Source: a virus
DNA length: 64,000 nt
Direction: 5' to 3' (one strand)
IMG/VR virus record: IMGVR_UViG_3300028146_000008
Coordinates: 30,369-94,368 of that record
The position numbers were made by a program, and so were the translations under genes. Below the pieces are notes generated by a model. That model worked only from the letters and a program-made list of their open reading frames with translations. It did no database searches and had not been told where the DNA came from. Of the stretch, positions 1 through 25,601 are shown piece by piece. Numbering within the stretch: the first letter of the stretch is position 1; each line of letters starts with the position of its first letter.

Positions 1-104
1 GCGTCTTCTCGCTTAGTCTCTCACGCTGCGATTTCTCGCTTGCGCCTCGTTGCCATTTCAGGGTTCGAGTCAATCAGAGAAGATTTTAGGAACACCGAGT
101 TTTA
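1..104 (-). ncRNA. Group I intron 3 of capsid gene (5' part, truncated by window edge)
   Basis: P1: exon GGAACAU pairs with GUGUUCC ending in U.G. P3 UCUUCUC/GAGAAGA, P4 CUCG/CGAG, P6a GCGA-GAAA-UCGC, R element GAGAGACUA. The 5' splice site could be after 105 or 104. Confidence 0.85.
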
Positions 105-1620
105 ATGTTCCGCCAGTTACCGTCTTCGATTGCATTGTCACCACGTCCGCCTAGGCGAATCGCTATGACTCCGTCTTTACCGAAGATGTAGGTACGGTAC
201 GCAACCACCGAAGCCGCCGAACCCTGATACGCCGTTGTGAGCGTAACCAAGTTCGACTGGAAGAACGCGACACCAGATGCTGGGAACTCCAGCGTGTCCG
301 CGAGGTCAACCGAGACCAAATCATCCATGCGCTGGAGTCCAGGCACGGTGTGCTTCAGTACGTCGATTGCTGAGTTGTTGCTGGAATCGTTCAAGAGGTC
401 GCCAACGGCGAACGGGTGAATGACGCCTGCGAAAAGTGCTTCCGCTTCGTTGAAGGGCTGCACTGCGCGGCCAGCCAGAGACTGGACCTGAGCGCGAATG
501 TTGGCGAGAGCCAACGAAGTACCACCAGTGATCTTGACCGACACGGAGCTGTCAACGCTGGAAGCGCCGTCAGCAACCGCACGGGTGATCGCGGACAGAG
601 ACTGTCCAAGGCGATACGAAAGTTCGCGACCGACGTTTTCAACAACCGGGTCGATTGCGGTAGCGAGGGAAAGGCTGGAGAAGTTCGCGTAGTCCGCGTA
701 CTCACCTATCGTGGCAGTCGTAGTTCCGACTGACGCGCTGATGCCCGTGGGCACCGTGCCTTCGGACACTTGGGCGGTGTTCGCGCCAAATGTGTTATTA
801 GTTGTGTTTAGGGTTTAAAGCGAGGCTTCCTGTGTCACCACAGGATCACTCTTACGGTCACCCGTAAGCTCGGACTCTATCTTCTCTTCGGTTTCCCGAA
901 GGTCTTGCGTATTAGTCTCTACGGAGTTATCTTGTCGATTCAGTAGGCGAATTTTATTGGCCAGTTCTTGGCGTTTCTGAGGACTACCATAAGGTAGCCG
1001 CAAAAACTCTAACGCAAGAATGGCTTGTTCTCTTTTCATTAGCAGGTATGGAACAATTGCGAGTAGAAAATTCTCTCGGTTCTTCTTGCCTGCGGGCATC
1101 CACATATACTGGGTACGCCCCGGTTTTCCGCCGTATCCGATTAGGGATCGAACGTAAAACCGCCCCCCGACATTTTTAACCAACCACTTCATCAGGAAGA
1201 GAGATGTATTGTAAATCGCTACTTGGAGTTGAAAGTCTCCTTGCGCTCTTTTGTTAGCGCAAATAGTTCCTTCTCCATCGACTATCCCGGCCAGATACGA
1301 CCATAAATGTTTTTCCATTTTAGATATTTCCTCGGTATTGTCTGATAATGATTGTATCAGAGATCCACCGATATAGCAAGATTTTTAATTCATGCATAAC
1401 TGTAGGTCTACATGAATAGTTCCAACTGATTACCGGAATTGAGAGGGAGTTCCCGACGTTCTGCACAACGAACGAAAGGAGTCTGCGCTTTCAAATTCTC
1501 AATAAAACGCTTCTTCTTTCAGTTGGTTTGATCTACGACAAGCGTTGTTTAATCGTAGTAAATTACTCGCGATTGCGGTAAGTTGGAAGTAGTGTTTGAA
1601 GCTGGATTAAATCCGGCCAT
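105..1620 (-). CDS. Major capsid protein (N4-gp56-like/HK97 fold), intron-split. Exon1 1620-1552, exon2 1512-1410, exon3 798-105; gene continues beyond the window start
   Basis: Joined exons read MAGFNPASNTTSNLPQSRVIYYD|KRFIENLKAQTPFVRCAERRELPLNSGNQLELFM-Y|NTFGANTAQVSEGTVP..., in frame with ORF 86..769. SD-like AAGGTAG upstream. Lies directly downstream of portal and scaffold. Confidence 0.85.
799..1409 (-). ncRNA. Group I intron 2 of capsid gene, carrying a LAGLIDADG homing endonuclease
   Basis: P1 UUCAUGU/GCAUGAA with U.G, P10 GUUAU/AUAAC, P3 UCUUGC/GCAAGA, P4 UCGGU/ACCGA, R GUAGAGACUA, S AAGAUAGAGUCC, P9 CUUACGG-GUGA-CCGUAAG. Removal restores the capsid frame. Confidence 0.9.
815..1318 (-). 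CDS. Intron-encoded LAGLIDADG homing endonuclease
   Basis: YLAGIVDGEGTI motif, 167 aa, inside intron 2. Confidence 0.9.
   Translation of the reverse strand: MEKHLWSYLAGIVDGEGTICANKRAQGDFQLQVAIYNTSLFLMKWLVKNVGGRFYVRSLIGYGGKPGRTQYMWMPAGKKNRENFLLAIVPYLLMKREQAILALEFLRLPYGSPQKRQELANKIRLLNRQDNSVETNTQDLRETEEKIESELTGDRKSDPVVTQEASL
1513..1551 (-). ncRNA. 39-nt core-less group-I-like mini-intron in capsid gene
   Basis: In-frame insertion with two stops between YYD and KRF. P1 CUACGAU/GUCGUAG, P10 AACGCUU/AAGCGUU, terminal G. Confidence 0.7.
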
Positions 1621-1663: not shown

Positions 1664-2584
1664 CTATTTTTTCTTCGCGTAGAGTTCTTCAACTGCTTTG
1701 CGGAAGTCAGGGTCTTTCAACTTCGCTTCGTACTCTGCCGCGCTCATTTTGTTGATATCTCTGTGAGTAATCCCAGCGGTCTTGGGCGCGGTCGCTCCAG
1801 GTACTGCGCTGGAATTACCTCGTCCCAATCCGGATGACGATTGCTGTGGTCGCACTTCTGTAGGCTCGCTCGGGATCGCCGGGGCCGAATTTGTCGCCGG
1901 TTCCGAGATCGTCGGAACCGTAGCAGGTGCGGCGGCAGCGGGTGCTGCCGGTGATACTGGTGTTTCCGCTTTTGGAGCCTGTAGCACTAACAAATCGTCA
2001 GCGGCTAAGTCTTCAAAAGCTAATCTCAAGTTTTGTGCGGTCCAGCGCCGATTGTTTTTCTCCATCCATTTCTGGATGTGATCTCGGTTGGACTCGCATT
2101 CCACATACTGTGGGGTGGCGGCGATGAATTCTCTAACCGCCTGTTGGATCTTTCCTACACGCTTATCAATATCAATGTCCCGGAGTTTTCCGCGAACTAC
2201 GTCTAGCGGGGCTCCGAGCTGGGCTTCGAGAAGGAGTTTTTGTCCTTCTGCCACCGTAGCGGGGTCTCTCAAGAGTTTTTCTATCTTGATCCGCTCATCG
2301 GCGGTAAGTGGCCGCTCCTCGTAGGAATAAAGCGGTTCTTCTTCCGGTTCGGGTTCCAGCATTTCGCCGAGCTTGGCTGCCCTGCGGGTTTCGTAAAGCT
2401 TCACTGCCGCGTTTCGGTGGGCAGCATCTTTCTTTTCCAGCAAGTCTTCGAGTGTGTCAGCTTCAAAGTACTGCAGAGGGCCGACTGGGAGGCCGTTGTT
2501 GTCGGTCAACTGAGTCTGGATTACAAACTTCTTTTTATCTTCATTCCAATACTTGGATTTAGGCGTAGCTACTGCTTCGGACAT
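1664..2584 (-). CDS. Capsid scaffolding protein
   Basis: Between portal and capsid genes; helical body, Pro/Ala linker, C-terminal INKMSAAEYEAKLKDPDFRKAVEELY. Confidence 0.7.
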   Translation of the reverse strand: MSEAVATPKSKYWNEDKKKFVIQTQLTDNNGLPVGPLQYFEADTLEDLLEKKDAAHRNAAVKLYETRRAAKLGEMLEPEPEEEPLYSYEERPLTADERIKIEKLLRDPATVAEGQKLLLEAQLGAPLDVVRGKLRDIDIDKRVGKIQQAVREFIAATPQYVECESNRDHIQKWMEKNNRRWTAQNLRLAFEDLAADDLLVLQAPKAETPVSPAAPAAAAPATVPTISEPATNSAPAIPSEPTEVRPQQSSSGLGRGNSSAVPGATAPKTAGITHRDINKMSAAEYEAKLKDPDFRKAVEELYAKKK

Positions 2585-3082: not shown

Positions 3083-5209
3083 TTATCCAACCATCTGGCC
3101 GGAACCGAGGCCCATCGTTGGCGCGTTAGCACCTAGAAGGGCTTCTGGTTCGGCGGATTTTTCTGCGATGACTCGGAAGATGTCTCGAACCGCTCTGGCT
3201 TCGTTTTCCTGGTCAATTAGCTGTTGGCTCTCTTGCATCTTGCGGGCGTCCGCTTGCTGGTCTATTTGCGCCTTCATTTGCATTTGAGCGGCAGGCGAGT
3301 TAGCTTGCAGACGCTGAATTTCTTCCGCACTCATATCTTCAATAATGCTGTAGTAGTTCTTCCAGCCTGAGATGTCGTGAACCATGTGGAAGAGTTCTTC
3401 CACGTTCACTTTCTTCTGGTTCACTTCGTTCAACTGTTTCATCAGCGGTTGATTCTCGAATAGCTGCAGCATCATAAAGAGTGACTGCGCCATCTGAGAT
3501 TTCGCGGCTAGGTGGGACCCGGCCAATACTTCAAATTCCGCAGGCGAATTCAGGAAATCGCCGGAATCAAAAGTCGCCCATTCTTTTCCAAAATGCTCGC
3601 CGAGAAGTTGCTTGATATACGCCATCGGCATCTTCTCTTTGTTGAGAGTATGCATTTTGTAAATCAAGGGCTCGTAGACTTGGCGCACAAACGCTTCGGC
3701 GAATCCACCGATGCGGTTCATCGTGGCTTGGATGACGCCCGCTGCGCCCGTGCCGGTACGCATTGCGCCGCCACGAGTGGTGGAAGCGCCCATCGTAAGT
3801 TGCTGGTTTGCGCCCGAGGTCATTTCGACCCGGCTCTGGGAGAGAGCGATTTGCTGTACGACTTCCGCAGGAATGTTCGGCTGCTGCATTAAGGTCAGAG
3901 CCTTAGTGGTGTCGCCGTCTACCGCGATAATCCCGCCGATTCGTTGTCTGATTTGTTGTTCCTGAACGTTAGCCCCGCGAGAGCGAACGAACATAGGATT
4001 GACAATGAGATCAGCCAAATCCAGGCAGGCGTTGATGAGACCGGCTTGAACACGTTGTTCGACCCCGATAACGCGACCAAGACCCAGACCCCAAAAAGCG
4101 TTAGGTATGTTCCACCAGTTGACACTAAGGAATGGAATACATCCGAACTCGTTTGGCTCATTACGGATTACCTTGACGCGCTGGAGAACGGTGATTACTT
4201 TGTCGTTGTCCCAGCGTTCCAGAACTTCCAGCGGTTCATCGAGTGGATCCGCAGTAGATGCTTCAAACTGAGGCTTCGCGTGATGGACCTGGGTGGTTCC
4301 CTGGCTCCCCATCATTTCGGTGCTTCCACCGACCGTCGCAGCTTCCTTGGGCCTCTCGAACCAAGATTTAATCGTGGCTTCGCTCGGGAGGTCGTACCGC
4401 TTTTTCAGTACCTGTTTGCCGTTTTCGGTGGTGACGTACTCTTCATCCTTCAACTTAATGAGGTCTTTGTACGTCAGATACATTTTGTCGATAACAAACT
4501 TCGCTTTGCGAATGTCAGGGACTTTTAGTCCCGGATCGACGAGTGTGAACCGGATATCTTTTGCTTCAAATGTGGTGCGATGAACCTGTTTGTCTTTTTC
4601 TACTTTTTTGTACGTTTGGGAGTCTTTGGTTTCGATAACCGTGGGTTCGGCTCCGGGGACTGGGAGGGCGGCAATCTTAACCCCCTTCTCCAACGGTTCA
4701 TATTTCGTTTCTTTTTTGACAAAGCTTTCAAAGCCCCACTTCCAAATACCAGTGCCAAAGTTCAGGGCCGAGAAAAGGCCCCAATCGGTTTCTTGGCGGA
4801 AACCCATCTCATCTTGTTCGATTGAAATCAGCGACCGGATCGCTCGGGTTATGTTTTCGCTTCTGGACGGGCGTGGTCGCAGAATGAAGGCCGGTGTTTC
4901 GTAAAACAGACCGTTCATCACCTGGGGGTGGATGGAGTTAACTGTTTCGGCGACTACGAACCGGTTCACATTGGAACGGGGGACCGTAGTTTGCTCCCAC
5001 ATCCGGATAGACGGTGGGGATTGATACAGCCCATCGGCTTCGCGCCACCGCAGCGTCCAATAATTTGTTTGCAGCCAAGCCTCTGTGTTGATCGTATCGT
5101 TCACGCAGAGTTGAAGTGCGCCGTCCTTAGTTACTTCGCTAGGACTTTTAAATTGGCTTACTTCCGGCTGCTGATTAGGATTTGCTGGATCGGGCGTGAC
5201 GTGGGCCAT
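3083..5209 (-). CDS. Portal protein (P22-like)
   Basis: 708 aa, follows terminase; EVLERW, IPF...FWGLG segments and Q-rich C-terminus typical of P22-type portals. Confidence 0.8.
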   Translation of the reverse strand: MAHVTPDPANPNQQPEVSQFKSPSEVTKDGALQLCVNDTINTEAWLQTNYWTLRWREADGLYQSPPSIRMWEQTTVPRSNVNRFVVAETVNSIHPQVMNGLFYETPAFILRPRPSRSENITRAIRSLISIEQDEMGFRQETDWGLFSALNFGTGIWKWGFESFVKKETKYEPLEKGVKIAALPVPGAEPTVIETKDSQTYKKVEKDKQVHRTTFEAKDIRFTLVDPGLKVPDIRKAKFVIDKMYLTYKDLIKLKDEEYVTTENGKQVLKKRYDLPSEATIKSWFERPKEAATVGGSTEMMGSQGTTQVHHAKPQFEASTADPLDEPLEVLERWDNDKVITVLQRVKVIRNEPNEFGCIPFLSVNWWNIPNAFWGLGLGRVIGVEQRVQAGLINACLDLADLIVNPMFVRSRGANVQEQQIRQRIGGIIAVDGDTTKALTLMQQPNIPAEVVQQIALSQSRVEMTSGANQQLTMGASTTRGGAMRTGTGAAGVIQATMNRIGGFAEAFVRQVYEPLIYKMHTLNKEKMPMAYIKQLLGEHFGKEWATFDSGDFLNSPAEFEVLAGSHLAAKSQMAQSLFMMLQLFENQPLMKQLNEVNQKKVNVEELFHMVHDISGWKNYYSIIEDMSAEEIQRLQANSPAAQMQMKAQIDQQADARKMQESQQLIDQENEARAVRDIFRVIAEKSAEPEALLGANAPTMGLGSGQMVG

Positions 5210-5783: not shown

Positions 5784-7640
5784 TCACGTTCCTAGTAACT
5801 GCTCGTCGTAATTTTTTATAATCGGCATCCCTTCCCAGTGAGTGGGAGGCGGGACCACGACTTCTTTCGGAAGATCGTAGCCGTCTGTTTTCCAGTGCTG
5901 GCCAGTCTCGTTTAGCGGATTCTCGCGGTGCCCGAACTGGCGCTCGCTTCTTTGCTTTTGCGCCAACACGTCCCAAGCCGCCGTGACTTTTTCTTGTTCC
6001 GTTTGCGGAATAGTTATGTCTTTCGGCAAGAATCGGCGAAGATGGCCAATCATGTCCACCGAATCATCTTTACGGTTGGTTCCGGCTTTGAACTGAACGA
6101 ACTCCCGAATGACTTGATTCATTACTTCTTTCGGAATCTGATCCGAGAAGAAGATTTGGTTATTCAGAAAGAGATTTTCAGTTCCTTCCGCGCGGGCGTT
6201 CTTAGCGCCTTTTTGGTTATCGACGGGGAACCATTCGATAGGCGGACAGTCGTGGTATCCGACCTTGGCCAATGCTCGGAGAATATCGTTCTCTAAGAAA
6301 TCAGCTCCTGGAGATTTTTCGACGCTTAATTTTTCTAGCGGACGCCACTGAACCGCTAAACCTGCAAACTGGTGGGGCAGATCGGACTTGCTGTACCGAC
6401 CGAGTTTAATCGCGGCTATGTACATCCGACCGGCGTATGGTCCTTTGTCTGTAAAGAACGCTACGCCGCCCGATGAACGGTCACTGTCCGGATTATCGGT
6501 TTTTGCGAAGTCCCATGCCATTCCGACAAAATAGGTTCCAGGTTGTGGGAACTGCTCGTGCGGAATAATCACCGCTTCGATCATTTCCTTAGTGAACTTC
6601 ACGACCTTGGTTAGAGTCGGGTTGATGAGGTACTGGCAACTGAAAATGTAGGCATCTACGTTGAGTTCGGTTTTTAGGTTCTTAAAAGACAACCGTTCAA
6701 CGCCGTCGCCATCTTTCTCAAACAAAAGGCTCGCGATATCGTCTTGCGTGATCTGGTCGAGCTGCTTATTCCATGCGGATTTCTTTAGAACCCAGGCGGC
6801 TGCTTTCAGCACCTTCAGGTCTACGATTGTTTCTTCCAGCGATGAGTAAGCATCCGAAATGTCATACGGAGTACCCACATAATCACGGTAGCCGTACAGA
6901 TCGACAATTGGACGAGCAAGCTTAATTTCAGCAGTAACTTTCTTGCGCGACTCTTCGTTGGCTTTAGGACCGGAGTTCGTGTTACTGACGCAATCATCGA
7001 ACTTACCTACGTCGGCGTGTTTACCTGCGGTGCTCATTCCCAGGGACAGGGCCAGCAGAGTAGGTTGGGGTTGCTGTTCTTTGCGAGACCGAGACATGAA
7101 TTCAAACTCGGACTCTTTTTTCTTCGCCGGTACACAATGGGCGAAGTACAACATTTGAAATCGAGTGAGTTGTTTGTCGTCTTCGACTTGGAAGTGGGAC
7201 TTGGTTTGCCGAACGAAATCGGCAGCCAATCCTTCTTCCGCCGTCATGTAGAAAACGCGAATGTTCGGAAAGCAGATGATCCACTGAATCGCATCCGCCA
7301 TGTCAATGGAGGATTTGAATGTGCCGCGCGGATAAAGAAGTAGGCGGTTCTTGATTGTGCTCTGCTTCGCTACCGCGTCTTTCCAGTTCTTCGCTTCGAT
7401 GTATGGGTTCTTTTTTACGAAAAAATCATCCGTGATTGGCCGGTGGGTTTCGTCAACGAGAGATAACCCGAGAAGGTCCGTACATAGCCAGTAAAGGTCT
7501 TGCTGGCCTCGGCGGAACTCCTCTTCCCAAACTTTCGGATCGTTGTAGCCGTATTTGAGCCAGTCCGTAGAACCCGTCTTTTCGGCAGCGCCTTTTGCTT
7601 CCTGGTAGAGCTTGTCGAAATCAAACGGGTTGTACGCCAT
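5784..7640 (-). CDS. terL: Terminase large subunit
   Basis: PRGTFKSS Walker A variant, GKHADVGKFDD Walker B, VGTPY motif III, nuclease AWDFA and KDDSVD. Confidence 0.88.
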   Translation of the reverse strand: MAYNPFDFDKLYQEAKGAAEKTGSTDWLKYGYNDPKVWEEEFRRGQQDLYWLCTDLLGLSLVDETHRPITDDFFVKKNPYIEAKNWKDAVAKQSTIKNRLLLYPRGTFKSSIDMADAIQWIICFPNIRVFYMTAEEGLAADFVRQTKSHFQVEDDKQLTRFQMLYFAHCVPAKKKESEFEFMSRSRKEQQPQPTLLALSLGMSTAGKHADVGKFDDCVSNTNSGPKANEESRKKVTAEIKLARPIVDLYGYRDYVGTPYDISDAYSSLEETIVDLKVLKAAAWVLKKSAWNKQLDQITQDDIASLLFEKDGDGVERLSFKNLKTELNVDAYIFSCQYLINPTLTKVVKFTKEMIEAVIIPHEQFPQPGTYFVGMAWDFAKTDNPDSDRSSGGVAFFTDKGPYAGRMYIAAIKLGRYSKSDLPHQFAGLAVQWRPLEKLSVEKSPGADFLENDILRALAKVGYHDCPPIEWFPVDNQKGAKNARAEGTENLFLNNQIFFSDQIPKEVMNQVIREFVQFKAGTNRKDDSVDMIGHLRRFLPKDITIPQTEQEKVTAAWDVLAQKQRSERQFGHRENPLNETGQHWKTDGYDLPKEVVVPPPTHWEGMPIIKNYDEQLLGT

Positions 7641-15880: not shown

Positions 15881-15955
15881 TGGGGCCCAGTGATGGATTT
15901 GAACCACCGACCCGCTGTTTACAAAACAGCCGCTCTGCCTCTGAGCTAACCGGGC
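15881..15955 (-). tRNA. tRNA-Thr(UGU)
   Basis: Cloverleaf; anticodon arm GCTGT-TTTGTAA-ACAGC; CCA encoded. Confidence 0.93.
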
Positions 15956-15961
15956 AAAACT

Positions 15962-16035
15962 TGGCGGGGTCGAAGGGAATCAAACCCTCGTTTTTCGAGC
16001 GACAGTCGAGCGTCTTGTCACTAGACGACGACCCC
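15962..16035 (-). tRNA. tRNA-Asp(GUC)
   Basis: Acceptor GGGGTCG/CGACCCC, loop CTGTCGC, G73-CCA; variant T-loop TTTGATT. Confidence 0.88.
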
Positions 16036-16041
16036 TAAATT

Positions 16042-16115
16042 TGGAGCGAGACGTGAGAATCGAACTCACTTCTTCAGTTTGGAAGACTGAGGCACTGCCA
16101 ATATGCCAGTCCCGC
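16042..16115 (-). tRNA. tRNA-Gly(UCC)
   Basis: TCAGT-CTTCCAA-ACTGA anticodon arm, GTTCGATTC, U73-CCA. Confidence 0.93.
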
Positions 16116-21459: not shown

Positions 21460-21855
21460 CTATTCGGATTGCTCTTTGGAAACTCGGCGGGGCTTTGGGA
21501 CTTTGCGGCGTTGCCGCTTAAATCTTGTGATCTCATCCACCAGATAACCCAAGTGATACGCCACTACCTCGTTTTGCTTTTTCACGTCCATTACGTCGAA
21601 CATGCGTTTGATTGCGTGGTAGCTCTCATGCGCGATAGTTCCCGCGCTTGCGTTGGGTTTTAGAAATATGAAACTGCAATCTTCGTCGCTGTGTACGGTC
21701 AACGCTTCTGTGTATTCGAGACCATCTATGCACGCGGTCGGGGGGTATTTTTTCGTTGCCGCTGCGATGTCTGATGCGAACTCGACATGCACCCAGTAAT
21801 TCGAGAAAACGGGAAATTCAATTATTGTGAACCGGCTCCTCGGTTTTGACCTCAA
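21460..21855 (-). CDS. Zincin-like metallopeptidase domain protein
   Basis: IAHESYH...EVVAY. Confidence 0.65.
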   Translation of the reverse strand: MRSKPRSRFTIIEFPVFSNYWVHVEFASDIAAATKKYPPTACIDGLEYTEALTVHSDEDCSFIFLKPNASAGTIAHESYHAIKRMFDVMDVKKQNEVVAYHLGYLVDEITRFKRQRRKVPKPRRVSKEQSE

Positions 21856-22068: not shown

Positions 22069-22860
22069 CTACCGGCCTAACAAGTTCGTTACTGACAGGT
22101 ATCGGAACAACGCGGCCCCTCCGGTTAGAATCACGAGCACTAACACCGCGAGCAGCCATGATTTCCCCTCGGATTTGGGTTCTGAAATTACTGGAACCGA
22201 TTTCGGTTTATACAGAACATCTACCGCTTTGCGATTCGCCGGATCTTGAATGAAGTCCTCGAACTCTTTTGCGGTCATTGCTTGAATCGAAGAGAACGTT
22301 ACGGTCGGTGCTTTCGCGTCCGCGAAAAGGGGATACTCTGATTTCCAGCCAGTCAGTTTGACGAAATCTTCTACAAATTGAACCGCGTTAGATTGTGGCA
22401 GTCCATTCCATTGGAGTTCGGCAGCTCGGGCGGGCGGAACATCTAAACTCTTTTTGAGATCGTTTAGTTCTTTTTCTGTGTTCCAGAGTTTGCCGCGCAA
22501 TTCTTCAATAATATTGTTCTGGTTCAGTACGGATTGGAACAGACTCCCCCCGAGATCAAACAACATGCGGCCATTCGCGTCTCTGACTTCCGCAATTTGC
22601 TTCCAGTTATCGCTCGTAACCTTATACGTCGCTGCTTCATTCTCCGCGCGGGCAAGGTTTACATGAACTACTTCGAGCGTGTTCTTTAGGGATTCTACGT
22701 CTTTGCGTAGTTGCTCGACTTCGCGGCGCGTGATTGTGCGACCTGCGATTGTAGCGTCAACGAGTTCTGTCGCTTTTGCTACGATCCCCTCATCCGTGAG
22801 AATTTGTGAGGCGTCGAAACCCTGCAAAGCGGCGACGATCTCTTTAGCTATCTTGCTCAT
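22069..22860 (-). CDS. Coiled-coil protein with scaffold-like motif and C-terminal transmembrane anchor
   Basis: Heptad-rich body; IQAMTAKEFEDFIQDPANRKAVDVLY; WLLAVLVLVILTGGAALF. Confidence 0.7.
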   Translation of the reverse strand: MSKIAKEIVAALQGFDASQILTDEGIVAKATELVDATIAGRTITRREVEQLRKDVESLKNTLEVVHVNLARAENEAATYKVTSDNWKQIAEVRDANGRMLFDLGGSLFQSVLNQNNIIEELRGKLWNTEKELNDLKKSLDVPPARAAELQWNGLPQSNAVQFVEDFVKLTGWKSEYPLFADAKAPTVTFSSIQAMTAKEFEDFIQDPANRKAVDVLYKPKSVPVISEPKSEGKSWLLAVLVLVILTGGAALFRYLSVTNLLGR

Positions 22861-23695: not shown

Positions 23696-24025
23696 CTAGC
23701 TTGGGTTTTTGAAACGGAACAGTTGCAAATTCGCCGTACCTTCTGGATTGGTCGGACCCGCTGCGCTCGTTCCACCTAGATTGAACTGAGGCGTGACCGC
23801 GCTGCCATCTGGTTTGGATCCGTATGCGCCTGGGTCGTAGCCAGAAAAATCGGTAGGCCCGAGATTGTTCAAACCTGCGGCTTGCCCTGCTAAACCACCG
23901 GGAACGCCCGTAGTAAGCGGCGTAGAAATGCTGTTCGCTGTGTGAACTTCTAAAAATACTGGAGCTGTAGCGTTCGCGCCTACTTGAAGTTCTGGTGTAT
24001 TGCTTGCCGGTCCAAAGTCTGCCAT
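23696..24025 (-). CDS. Small Gly/Pro-rich protein ending NPS
   Basis: GAGGT SD; N-terminus MADFGPASNTP; C-terminus FRFKNPS. Confidence 0.7.
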   Translation of the reverse strand: MADFGPASNTPELQVGANATAPVFLEVHTANSISTPLTTGVPGGLAGQAAGLNNLGPTDFSGYDPGAYGSKPDGSAVTPQFNLGGTSAAGPTNPEGTANLQLFRFKNPS

Positions 24026-24930: not shown

Positions 24931-25512
24931 GTGCAATTCCTAACCACATCTGAACTGTTGGCCGTTCTTAAAGTTGCTCGCGACCGTTCGCTTCGAGATT
25001 GGCTGCTTATGGTCGTTCAGTTCAACCACGCTCTGCGGCCATCCGAGGTTTGTGCAATCAAGATGGACGATATCAAAAACGGTTCGCTTACTGTTCAACG
25101 TCGAAAGGGATCGAAGCTAACTTGTCAGCCGCTCCGGAAACATAAGGGCCAAACACTTCTGGACGAAGTTCGCGGATTGTCCGAGTGGGTTAAGGTTCGG
25201 CCCCGAGACTGTGGTTCAGCGTTGTTCTGTAGTGCAAAAGGTGGACCGATCACTGCGAAGCACTACAACTTTCTGTTTAAGAAGTACGCGCTGTTGGCGG
25301 GATTGCCACAATCTAAAGCTCATCCTCATGCCATACGCCACACGAGCGCCACGTTAATGGCTCGCCAGGGTATGGACATCGGATGGATTCAAACACATTT
25401 AGGCCATACCTCAATTACGAGTACGGCCATCTACACACATTTGAACTCAGAAGAAGTTTCTGCAAAAGCCCATGAAGCTTTCATGGACGCGTTTAAAGAT
25501 CCGACCACGTAA
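24931..25512 (+). CDS. Tyrosine recombinase, catalytic domain only (FimB/FimE-like)
   Basis: LRPSE, RRKGS, HPHAIRH, HLGH...TAIY catalytic set; 193 aa with no N-terminal arm/core-binding domain. Confidence 0.88.
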   Translation: MQFLTTSELLAVLKVARDRSLRDWLLMVVQFNHALRPSEVCAIKMDDIKNGSLTVQRRKGSKLTCQPLRKHKGQTLLDEVRGLSEWVKVRPRDCGSALFCSAKGGPITAKHYNFLFKKYALLAGLPQSKAHPHAIRHTSATLMARQGMDIGWIQTHLGHTSITSTAIYTHLNSEEVSAKAHEAFMDAFKDPTT

Positions 25513-25516
25513 ACTG

Positions 25517-25601
25517 CTGGGGCAGCAGGAGTCGAACCTGCAATGTCCTTTCGGACTGTCGCCTTAACGGGGCGATGCTGTGCCAGTTGAGCCACACCCC
25601 A
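25517..25601 (-). tRNA. Atypical tRNA with Asn (GUU) anticodon and long variable arm
   Basis: Acceptor TGGGGTG/TGCCCCA, G73; anticodon arm TCGCC-CCGTTAA-GGCGA; variable arm GTCC-GAAA-GGAC; T arm GCAGG-TTCGACT-CCTGC; no encoded CCA. Confidence 0.75.

Follow-up and report, generated by a model that had tools for sequence, protein, structure and literature searches.

How does the C-terminal domain of a phage scaffolding protein come to be carried by a membrane protein, and what could it do there? The question is raised by an ORF on the minus strand of a viral contig, in which an earlier note had recognized a membrane-anchored coiled-coil protein bearing a scaffold-like motif. The stretch of DNA analysed (the window) is 64,000 nucleotides in length and corresponds to bases 30369-94368 of a 94,368-bp viral contig which is ~85% complete.

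Architecture of the target protein

The target protein (P0001), defined from the ORF list and its translation, was found to consist of a helical N-terminal part with heptad repeats, a copy of a scaffold tail and a single C-terminal transmembrane helix. Its gene is divided as follows:

22069-22860 (minus strand): target gene P0001, encoding a tail-anchored membrane protein of 263 aa; an ORF with intact homologous ORFs in four database proteins and five metagenome loci
22741-22836 (minus strand): variable cassette V1 (~aa 9-40); DNA unalignable to locus L002, with flanks >90% identical; same V1 type in the homologue P0003
22621-22740 (minus strand): conserved helical block 1 with heptad repeat (~aa 41-80); 55-56 of 60 nt identical to L002, invariant columns from I43 to A77, predicted helix 45-95
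22501-22620 (minus strand): variable cassette V2 (~aa 81-120); 22-30 of 60 nt identical to L002, which is near-random; at least three sequence types among homologues
22306-22500 (minus strand): conserved block 2 (invariant LWNTEKELNDLKK) and the first half of the insert, this half being common to L002 and partly to P0005
22201-22332 (minus strand): copy of the scaffold C-terminal mini-domain (aa 177-220), filling cassette V3; identified by a foreign-tail HMM, alignment and an AF2 model; unrelated sequence in L002
22090-22164 (minus strand): C-terminal transmembrane helix (aa 233-257), followed by 6-11 residues; from hydropathy, a predicted helix and a hydrophobic stretch in all homologues

The transmembrane helix reported after the motif is confirmed by a hydrophobic 19-mer at aa 233-251 (Kyte-Doolittle mean of 2.01) and by a helix predicted at aa 234-257. 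This anchor starts ~15 residues past the scaffold-tail copy, with 43 residues in total following the copied domain. On inspection of the sequence the N-terminus was not hydrophobic and a signal-like segment was absent. P0001 thus has one transmembrane helix within ~30 residues of its C-terminus and no signal sequence, as is characteristic of tail-anchored proteins, and because of the missing signal sequence the scaffold-tail copy is predicted to lie on the cytoplasmic side. Spanin, holin and secreted-protein readings of the protein were rejected, as no lipobox, N-terminal transmembrane segment or signal peptide was present.

The description of the N-terminal part as a coiled coil holds to a degree. 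A clean 3-4 hydrophobic repeat (V48, L51, V55, L58, L62, V65, L69) is present and long helices are predicted, with low confidence, at 45-95 and 100-138, whereas matches to Pfam coiled-coil families stayed below threshold. The AF2 model of the full-length protein was poor (pLDDT of 42.5).

The resident scaffold gene and its superfamily

The protein whose tail resembles the P0001 segment is encoded in the head gene region of the same window:

1664-2584 (minus strand): resident scaffold-position gene P0002 (306 aa), between the portal and capsid genes; 47 homologues; member of the superfamily of gp4 of phage Tunturi 3
1667-1798 (minus strand): its C-terminal mini-domain, of type A (KLKDPDFRKAV), from tail alignment and HMM

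The neighbours of P0002 are the portal gene (3083-5209; Pfam SU10_portal, E 4e-24) and the major capsid gene, with the large terminase gene lying upstream of the portal at 5784-7640. P0002 itself gave no match in Pfam, PHROG or NCBIfam and has no relative in the PDB, which places it outside the curated scaffold families. It is called a scaffold because of its position, its A/P-rich linker and its family. Across the 47 homologues the last ~35 residues are the most conserved (G-I-T-I-R-D-I-N-K-M-S-A-x-E-Y-x-x-x-L-K-D-P-E-F-R-K-x-V-x-x-L-Y-A-K-K).

When a profile of eleven tails was compared with 1.84 billion representative proteins (E <= 1e-3), 90 proteins were found to carry this mini-domain, nearly all of them full-length scaffold homologues. 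The domain lies at the extreme C-terminus in almost all 90, a subset of 360-440 aa having a second, N-terminal copy. Since 68 of the 72 carriers with sufficient length for comparison group with P0002 in one superfamily by similarity of their bodies, the mini-domain is regarded as the hallmark of a single scaffold superfamily. Among the 90, it is in P0001 alone that the domain precedes a transmembrane segment and belongs to a protein whose body is not that of a scaffold. In 13 related viral contigs the capsid gene comes straight after the domain-bearing scaffold gene; viral-contig searches for the context of two distant domain carriers found nothing.

Tunturi 3 is a 97.6-kb podovirus of a tundra-soil acidobacterium (PMC11924767), and the major head protein of the present phage group is 65% identical to its counterpart in that phage. 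Tunturi 3 gp4 (PP885686.1, 4786-5817) is annotated as hypothetical; its gene is flanked by those for the portal and the major head protein, and in the body comparison it matches many of the same domain carriers. From its position, full-length similarity and C-terminal domain, gp4 belongs to the same scaffold superfamily and could be labelled a putative scaffolding protein. The mini-domain, which is newly defined and very specific and previously had neither a name nor a Pfam entry, could serve for scaffold annotation in a large group of soil phages, including the cultured Tunturi 3, in which these proteins are listed as hypothetical.

A third carrier of the mini-domain was observed outside the window:

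G000:C1:27755-27949 (minus strand): conserved structural-module protein of ~55-60 aa, beginning with a divergent copy of the mini-domain (M-T-A-S-E-Y-K-x-W-L-x-N-P); orthologues at L011:14098-14277, L007:6117-6278, L008:14238-14402 and L014:13747-13935

It sits downstream of the capsid gene (~1.8 kb in L014), and profile-profile comparison with the scaffold tail gave an hhalign probability of 94.9% (E 4.5e-8).

Interruptions in the major capsid gene

The major capsid gene of the window (86-1620, minus strand) has two interruptions relative to the intact 340-aa genes of L013, L014 and L016. Comparison with relatives divides it as follows:

1552-1620 (minus strand): capsid codons 1-23
1513-1551 (minus strand): in-frame insert of 39 nt with two stop codons (TAA, TGA), absent from the closest relative, L007
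1411-1512 (minus strand): capsid codons 24-57
797-1410 (minus strand): insert of ~610 nt with a LAGLIDADG-type endonuclease ORF at 815-1318 (labelled HNH in PHROG)
from there down to 86 (minus strand): rest of the capsid gene

The ~610-nt insert gave a weak match to a group I intron (Rfam RF00028, 20 bits, E 0.023), and endonuclease inserts are found elsewhere in the capsid genes of relatives. At 39 nt the other insert falls below the size of a group I intron; it may reflect translational bypass or an unusual mini-intron, or else be an assembly or pseudogene artefact.

Homology of the P0001 segment to the scaffold tail

A 27-aa string of P0001 (22210-22290, minus strand) was aligned with its counterpart at the C-terminus of the 306-aa scaffold ORF (1679-1759, minus strand). 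The gapless alignment that had been reported was reproduced, with 13 of 27 residues identical, and BLASTP of P0001 against P0002 gave 32 bits (E 6e-6) over 50 aa. An HMM was then built from 44 scaffold tails of other phages, both window sequences being left out. Among the 1326 six-frame ORFs of the window this foreign-tail HMM matched P0001 with 40.4 bits and an E-value of 1.3e-11, the next ORF having an E-value of 0.55; rescaled to 1.84e9 proteins, the value for P0001 is ~2e-5.

All five invariant columns of the tail (M19, D30, K35, L40 and Y41) are kept in the P0001 copy, in register and without gaps. Most of the near-invariant positions are kept as well (P31, V37, E23 and K44), Y24 being replaced by F. 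The copy spans the whole domain, a unit of 41-44 aa with which every scaffold protein in this phage group terminates, from the "APK..T" lead-in to the final "LY.K". Judged by the HMM and the invariant columns, the match is far beyond chance and is one of true homology, in agreement with the earlier note, which had taken the motif for a copy of the scaffold C-terminal domain. In P0001 the domain is not at the extreme C-terminus, and the body of the protein has no similarity to scaffolds.

AF2 modelling of aa 177-220 returned three short helices (13-17, 21-27 and 31-41) with a pLDDT of 77; the underlying alignment of 29 rows consists mostly of scaffold tails, so the model is not independent evidence. 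With this 44-aa model, Foldseek found no PDB match and viral models only at E > 4, the domain being very small. All VIA-align matches had Z <= 3.2, with the Ku70 SAP domain among the weak ones (Z 2.3), and nothing rose above noise in the ESM Atlas. The net charge of the copy, as read from its sequence, is ~+1.

Homologues, mosaic structure and distribution

Homologues of P0001 were found in four database proteins (209-217 aa) and five metagenome loci (L002-L006), and it is from these short loci that the genomic context of the family was read. The N-terminal helical blocks and the C-terminal anchor are common to all complete homologues, the anchor having diverged in the more distant P0005. The scaffold motif, whose conservation among homologues the earlier note had made decisive for its functional proposal, is absent from every one recovered, L006 ending at a contig edge before this region. 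By the standard set in that note, its absence counts against the proposal. The architecture of domain plus anchor was thus seen in one sequence only in the databases searched.

At the DNA level, the P0001 gene and L002 alternate between blocks of 90-93% identity and three near-random blocks (~aa 9-40, 81-120 and 183-225). The scaffold tail occupies the third of these variable cassettes, adjoining the anchor, and the mosaic junctions are abrupt. V3 of L002 follows that of the window for its first half, as far as E-Y-P-L-F-x-D-A, beyond which unrelated sequence stands in place of the tail; in the other alleles V3 holds unrelated sequences of 50-87 aa. The window and P0003 share V1 and not V2, while L002 and L003-L005 share both. 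These patterns of sharing indicate that the cassette types recombine freely. A diversity-generating retroelement was rejected as the source of this variability, as the changes are wholesale replacements and indels and not point changes. Comparison of the variable cassettes of other alleles with phage proteins gave no match better than E 0.3, and a general "mimic library" in these cassettes is therefore not supported.

The P0001 family is small and comes from uncultured soil phages with kinship to Tunturi 3, a podophage of Tunturiibacter (Acidobacteriota). Its members are tail-anchored proteins of the inner membrane, having a helical heptad-repeat stalk, predicted to be cytoplasmic, and one transmembrane helix at the C-terminus. 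Searches for the family drew a blank in Tunturi 3 and in five related phage records, of which one is 97% complete, and IMG/VR contigs yielded no relatives. With this distribution and its swapped cassettes, the P0001 gene is hypervariable, mosaic and accessory. GTDB species genomes contained no relatives of the family (185,579 bacterial species genomes) or of the scaffold, and 50,697 cultured or deposited phage records showed no DNA or protein similarity to the target, the scaffold or the HExxH neighbour described below.

The gene belongs to a cassette of small genes delimited by comparison with L002-L006:

21460-23604 (minus strand): conserved small-gene cassette encoding a basic protein of 85-100 aa, a 92-aa protein, a CxxC protein of ~53 aa, the target, a 113-aa protein and a 131-aa HExxH protein

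The neighbours in this cassette have 59-90% protein identity to their counterparts in L002-L006, compared with 43-56% for the target. The 131-aa HExxH protein (21460-21855, minus strand) lies downstream of the target, a single ORF of 113 aa separating the two, and is better conserved than any other member of the cassette (90% identity in L005). It matches phrog_1365, of unknown function (E 1e-10), and, weakly, the DUF5700 peptidase family.

On the plus strand at 24931-25512, 2 kb from the target, is a gene for an integrase-family recombinase of 193 aa comprising the catalytic domain only (Pfam E 4.6e-31). A tRNA-Asn gene (25516-25601, minus strand) abuts it on the opposite strand, and three further tRNAs (Thr, Asp and Gly) are located at 15881-16115.

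Origin of the copy

The tail closest to the P0001 copy is that of the scaffold homologue P0030 (20 of 38 residues identical; BLOSUM62 score of 110). The resident tail ranks only 41st of 133 (16 of 38 identical, or 42%; score of 71), and no sampled tail exceeds 53% identity. A recent intragenomic duplication was consequently rejected, since foreign tails resemble the copy more than the resident one does and the DNA of copy and resident tail has diverged to about the same extent as the protein.

Two tail types were distinguished among the scaffolds, namely type A (L-K-D-P-E-F-R-K) and a minority type B (F-I-x-D-P-E-N-R-K); the scaffold homologues listed for the tail types are P0009, P0023, P0030, P0034 and P0044. 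The P0001 copy carries a type-B-like signature (F-I-x-D-P-x-N-R-K). Type-B tails occur at no fewer than three separate, well-supported places in the tree of scaffold bodies, a scatter which implies tail exchange among scaffolds or repeated convergence. Because of this scatter, and because a third, small protein family also carries it, the mini-domain is considered to be a mobile module. By these sequence comparisons the copy is an old or rapidly diverged capture from the scaffold gene of a related phage. The capture was precise, taking in the whole domain and setting it ~15 residues from a C-terminal anchor.

Possible function

In P22 gp8, 80alpha gp46 and SaPI1 CpmB the C-terminal helical element of the scaffold contacts the capsid protein at its inner face and N-arm (PMC5644958). 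By analogy with these proteins the copied domain would also dock on capsid protein, and P0001 would display a capsid-binding module on the cytoplasmic side of the membrane, ~15 residues away from it. Since scaffold tails bind inside the shell, one that is anchored in the membrane would have no place in a closed procapsid. Only free capsomers or shells still open could be held, their inner face turned to the membrane. The result may be sequestration of coat protein or interference with capsid assembly, acting on co-infecting relatives and possibly on the phage's own excess coat protein. Domain capture followed by such sequestration or interference is the reading that we tentatively favour. The same geometry makes productive head building less likely than sequestration.

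The earlier note had proposed, as one of two roles, a decoy for the capsid protein of related phages. A decoy fits a hypervariable, mosaic and accessory gene better than a tether does, but a specificity for relatives only is unlikely. The N-terminal 70 residues of the capsid protein are nearly identical in phages with either tail type, so P0001 would probably bind the capsid protein of its own phage too, which is awkward for a pure anti-rival decoy.

It is also possible, if somewhat unlikely, that the scaffold tail is a neutral passenger, brought by recombination into a linker cassette that tolerates such exchange and having no specific role there. The abrupt junctions, the single occurrence of the tail in the P0001 family and the unrelated sequences that fill V3 in other alleles, none of which matches another phage protein, are in keeping with this. 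A passenger fits less well with the precise capture of a whole domain, with the retention of the five invariant and most near-invariant positions in a copy so distant from any sampled tail, and with the fact that the copy is predicted to fold and lies in frame within an intact ORF. If the donor was an unsampled tail nearly identical to the copy, no function would be needed to account for the intact conserved residues.

The other role put forward earlier was that of a tether, by which P0001 would nucleate or hold procapsid assembly of its own phage at the inner membrane. For SPP1, procapsid precursors are documented as membrane-associated, and T4, in which the portal initiator is at the membrane, is cited alongside (PMC13212656). 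The copied tail should moreover recognize its own capsid protein, the N-terminal 70 aa of which are nearly invariant across the group. However, the motif is missing from all recovered homologues, and the lack of a family match in the five related records and in Tunturi 3 indicates that assembly in this group does not need P0001, so that a core role as procapsid tether is excluded. In addition, the gene is 20 kb away from the head genes, in a variable cassette of small genes, and a tail which binds the inner face cannot stay bound in a closed shell when it is 15 residues from the membrane. A productive tether is therefore judged doubtful.

A different client for the mini-domain, such as the portal, the prohead protease or DNA (as in SAP/HeH-like three-helix domains), which P0001 would bring to the membrane, is thought to be quite improbable. 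Phage phi29 p16.7, which organizes replication at the membrane, offers a comparison for such a role. The capsid partnership of this scaffold tail is proposed by analogy, there being no Pfam, PHROG or PDB scaffold match for the family; the small three-helix fold is generic, with the Ku70 SAP domain as a weak match; and a small protein of the structural module carries the mini-domain as well. Against this, the structural matches are all at noise level, a net charge of ~+1 is weak for DNA binding, and in every structurally studied scaffold the C-terminal element contacts the capsid protein (PMC5644958).

Least probable by our estimate is a sensor-effector device for abortive infection or exclusion, in which the variable cassettes would sense phage proteins (here the coat) and clustering of the helices would damage the membrane: variable cassettes with conserved helices and an anchor do resemble variable-sensor/constant-effector designs, one related phage record is classed as a provirus and the integrase-family gene is close by, but PADLOC gave no meaningful match (only a 13.7-bit coiled-coil match to LmuB, and nothing for the neighbours), the bacterial species genomes held no relatives, the anchor diverges in P0005 and Tunturi 3 behaves lytically (PMC11924767).

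A further observation was made near the target. A 109-aa protein rich in G, P, S and T (23696-24025, minus strand) begins M-A-D-F-G-P-A-S-N-T, and the capsid protein begins M-A-G-F-N-P-A-S-N-T. In a six-frame scan of the 94-kb contig (~189,000 windows), a 7/10 match to the capsid N-terminus was seen in this protein only, exactly at the start of its ORF. Compared with the capsid gene, the DNA is identical at 12 of 60 positions upstream (unrelated) and at 18 of 33 in the coding part, and because the DNA has diverged and the upstream region is unrelated, the likeness is considered to be kept at the protein level. The gene is on the same strand as the target, three genes upstream of it, and outside the cassette conserved in L003. 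This N-terminus could be a capsid-targeting signal, a processing signal or a partner for scaffold-type tails.

The sequestration reading may be extended, as an idea which we regard as unlikely in its full form, to the P0001 family as a set of membrane "baits" shuffled by cassette, of which the present member would capture the coat protein of co-infecting or superinfecting relatives on the membrane, inner face down, in an assembly-level exclusion between phages; the 109-aa protein may then be a cognate partner, the two forming a mini scaffold-capsid pair at the membrane. If true, exclusion of this kind through a membrane bait would be a form of phage-phage exclusion without earlier description.

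Comparison with known systems

An assignment of P0001 to a family beyond the statement that it carries a scaffold tail domain is not justified. Tunturi 3 gp4 resembles the resident scaffold in superfamily and position and has the same C-terminal mini-domain in divergent form; it differs in that Tunturi 3 has no match to the membrane protein family of P0001. As an accessory membrane protein encoded by a phage in a variable region, P0001 may also be likened to SieA of P22. SieA and similar inner-membrane proteins of superinfection exclusion work from the periplasmic side, on the entry of DNA. P0001, in contrast, copies a piece of a protein absent from the virion, is predicted to face the cytoplasm and has no sequence similarity to SieA.

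P22 gp8 likewise has a small helical domain at the extreme C-terminus of the scaffold, with a flexible region before it and conserved R/K residues preceding a hydrophobic helix. The earlier comparison with P22-like phages is sound as a functional analogy only. Neither P0001 nor P0002 matches any Pfam scaffold family or has a PDB match, and no sequence relationship to gp8 was found. In SPP1 and T4 the attachment to the membrane is proposed to occur via the portal, and no scaffold-tailed membrane protein is described there (PMC13212656). If the tail copy does bind coat protein, P0001 would be the first known membrane-anchored protein to use a scaffold docking domain, and this would bear on how, and whether, phage heads start or stay at the membrane, as discussed for T4 and SPP1. 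It would likewise bear on rivalry between phages at the level of capsid assembly, as known from satellites with CpmB.

The premise of a non-scaffold protein with a borrowed capsid-binding tail has a firm precedent in SaPI1 CpmB (Dearborn et al. 2017, PMC5644958). In CpmB the C-terminal helix-and-hook is nearly the same as in the 80alpha scaffold, and it competes for the site by the N-arm of the capsid protein (PMC5644958). In both cases a protein other than the resident scaffold carries the scaffold tail, capsid binding by P0001 being proposed by analogy. The two differ in that CpmB is a soluble internal scaffold of a satellite with the motif at its very C-terminus, whereas P0001 is encoded by a phage, has an anchor after the domain and has a non-scaffold body; the 94-kb contig has its own terminase, portal and capsid genes and is thus not a satellite. 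CpmB is nevertheless the closest known case to P0001, the same trick being played with another carrier.
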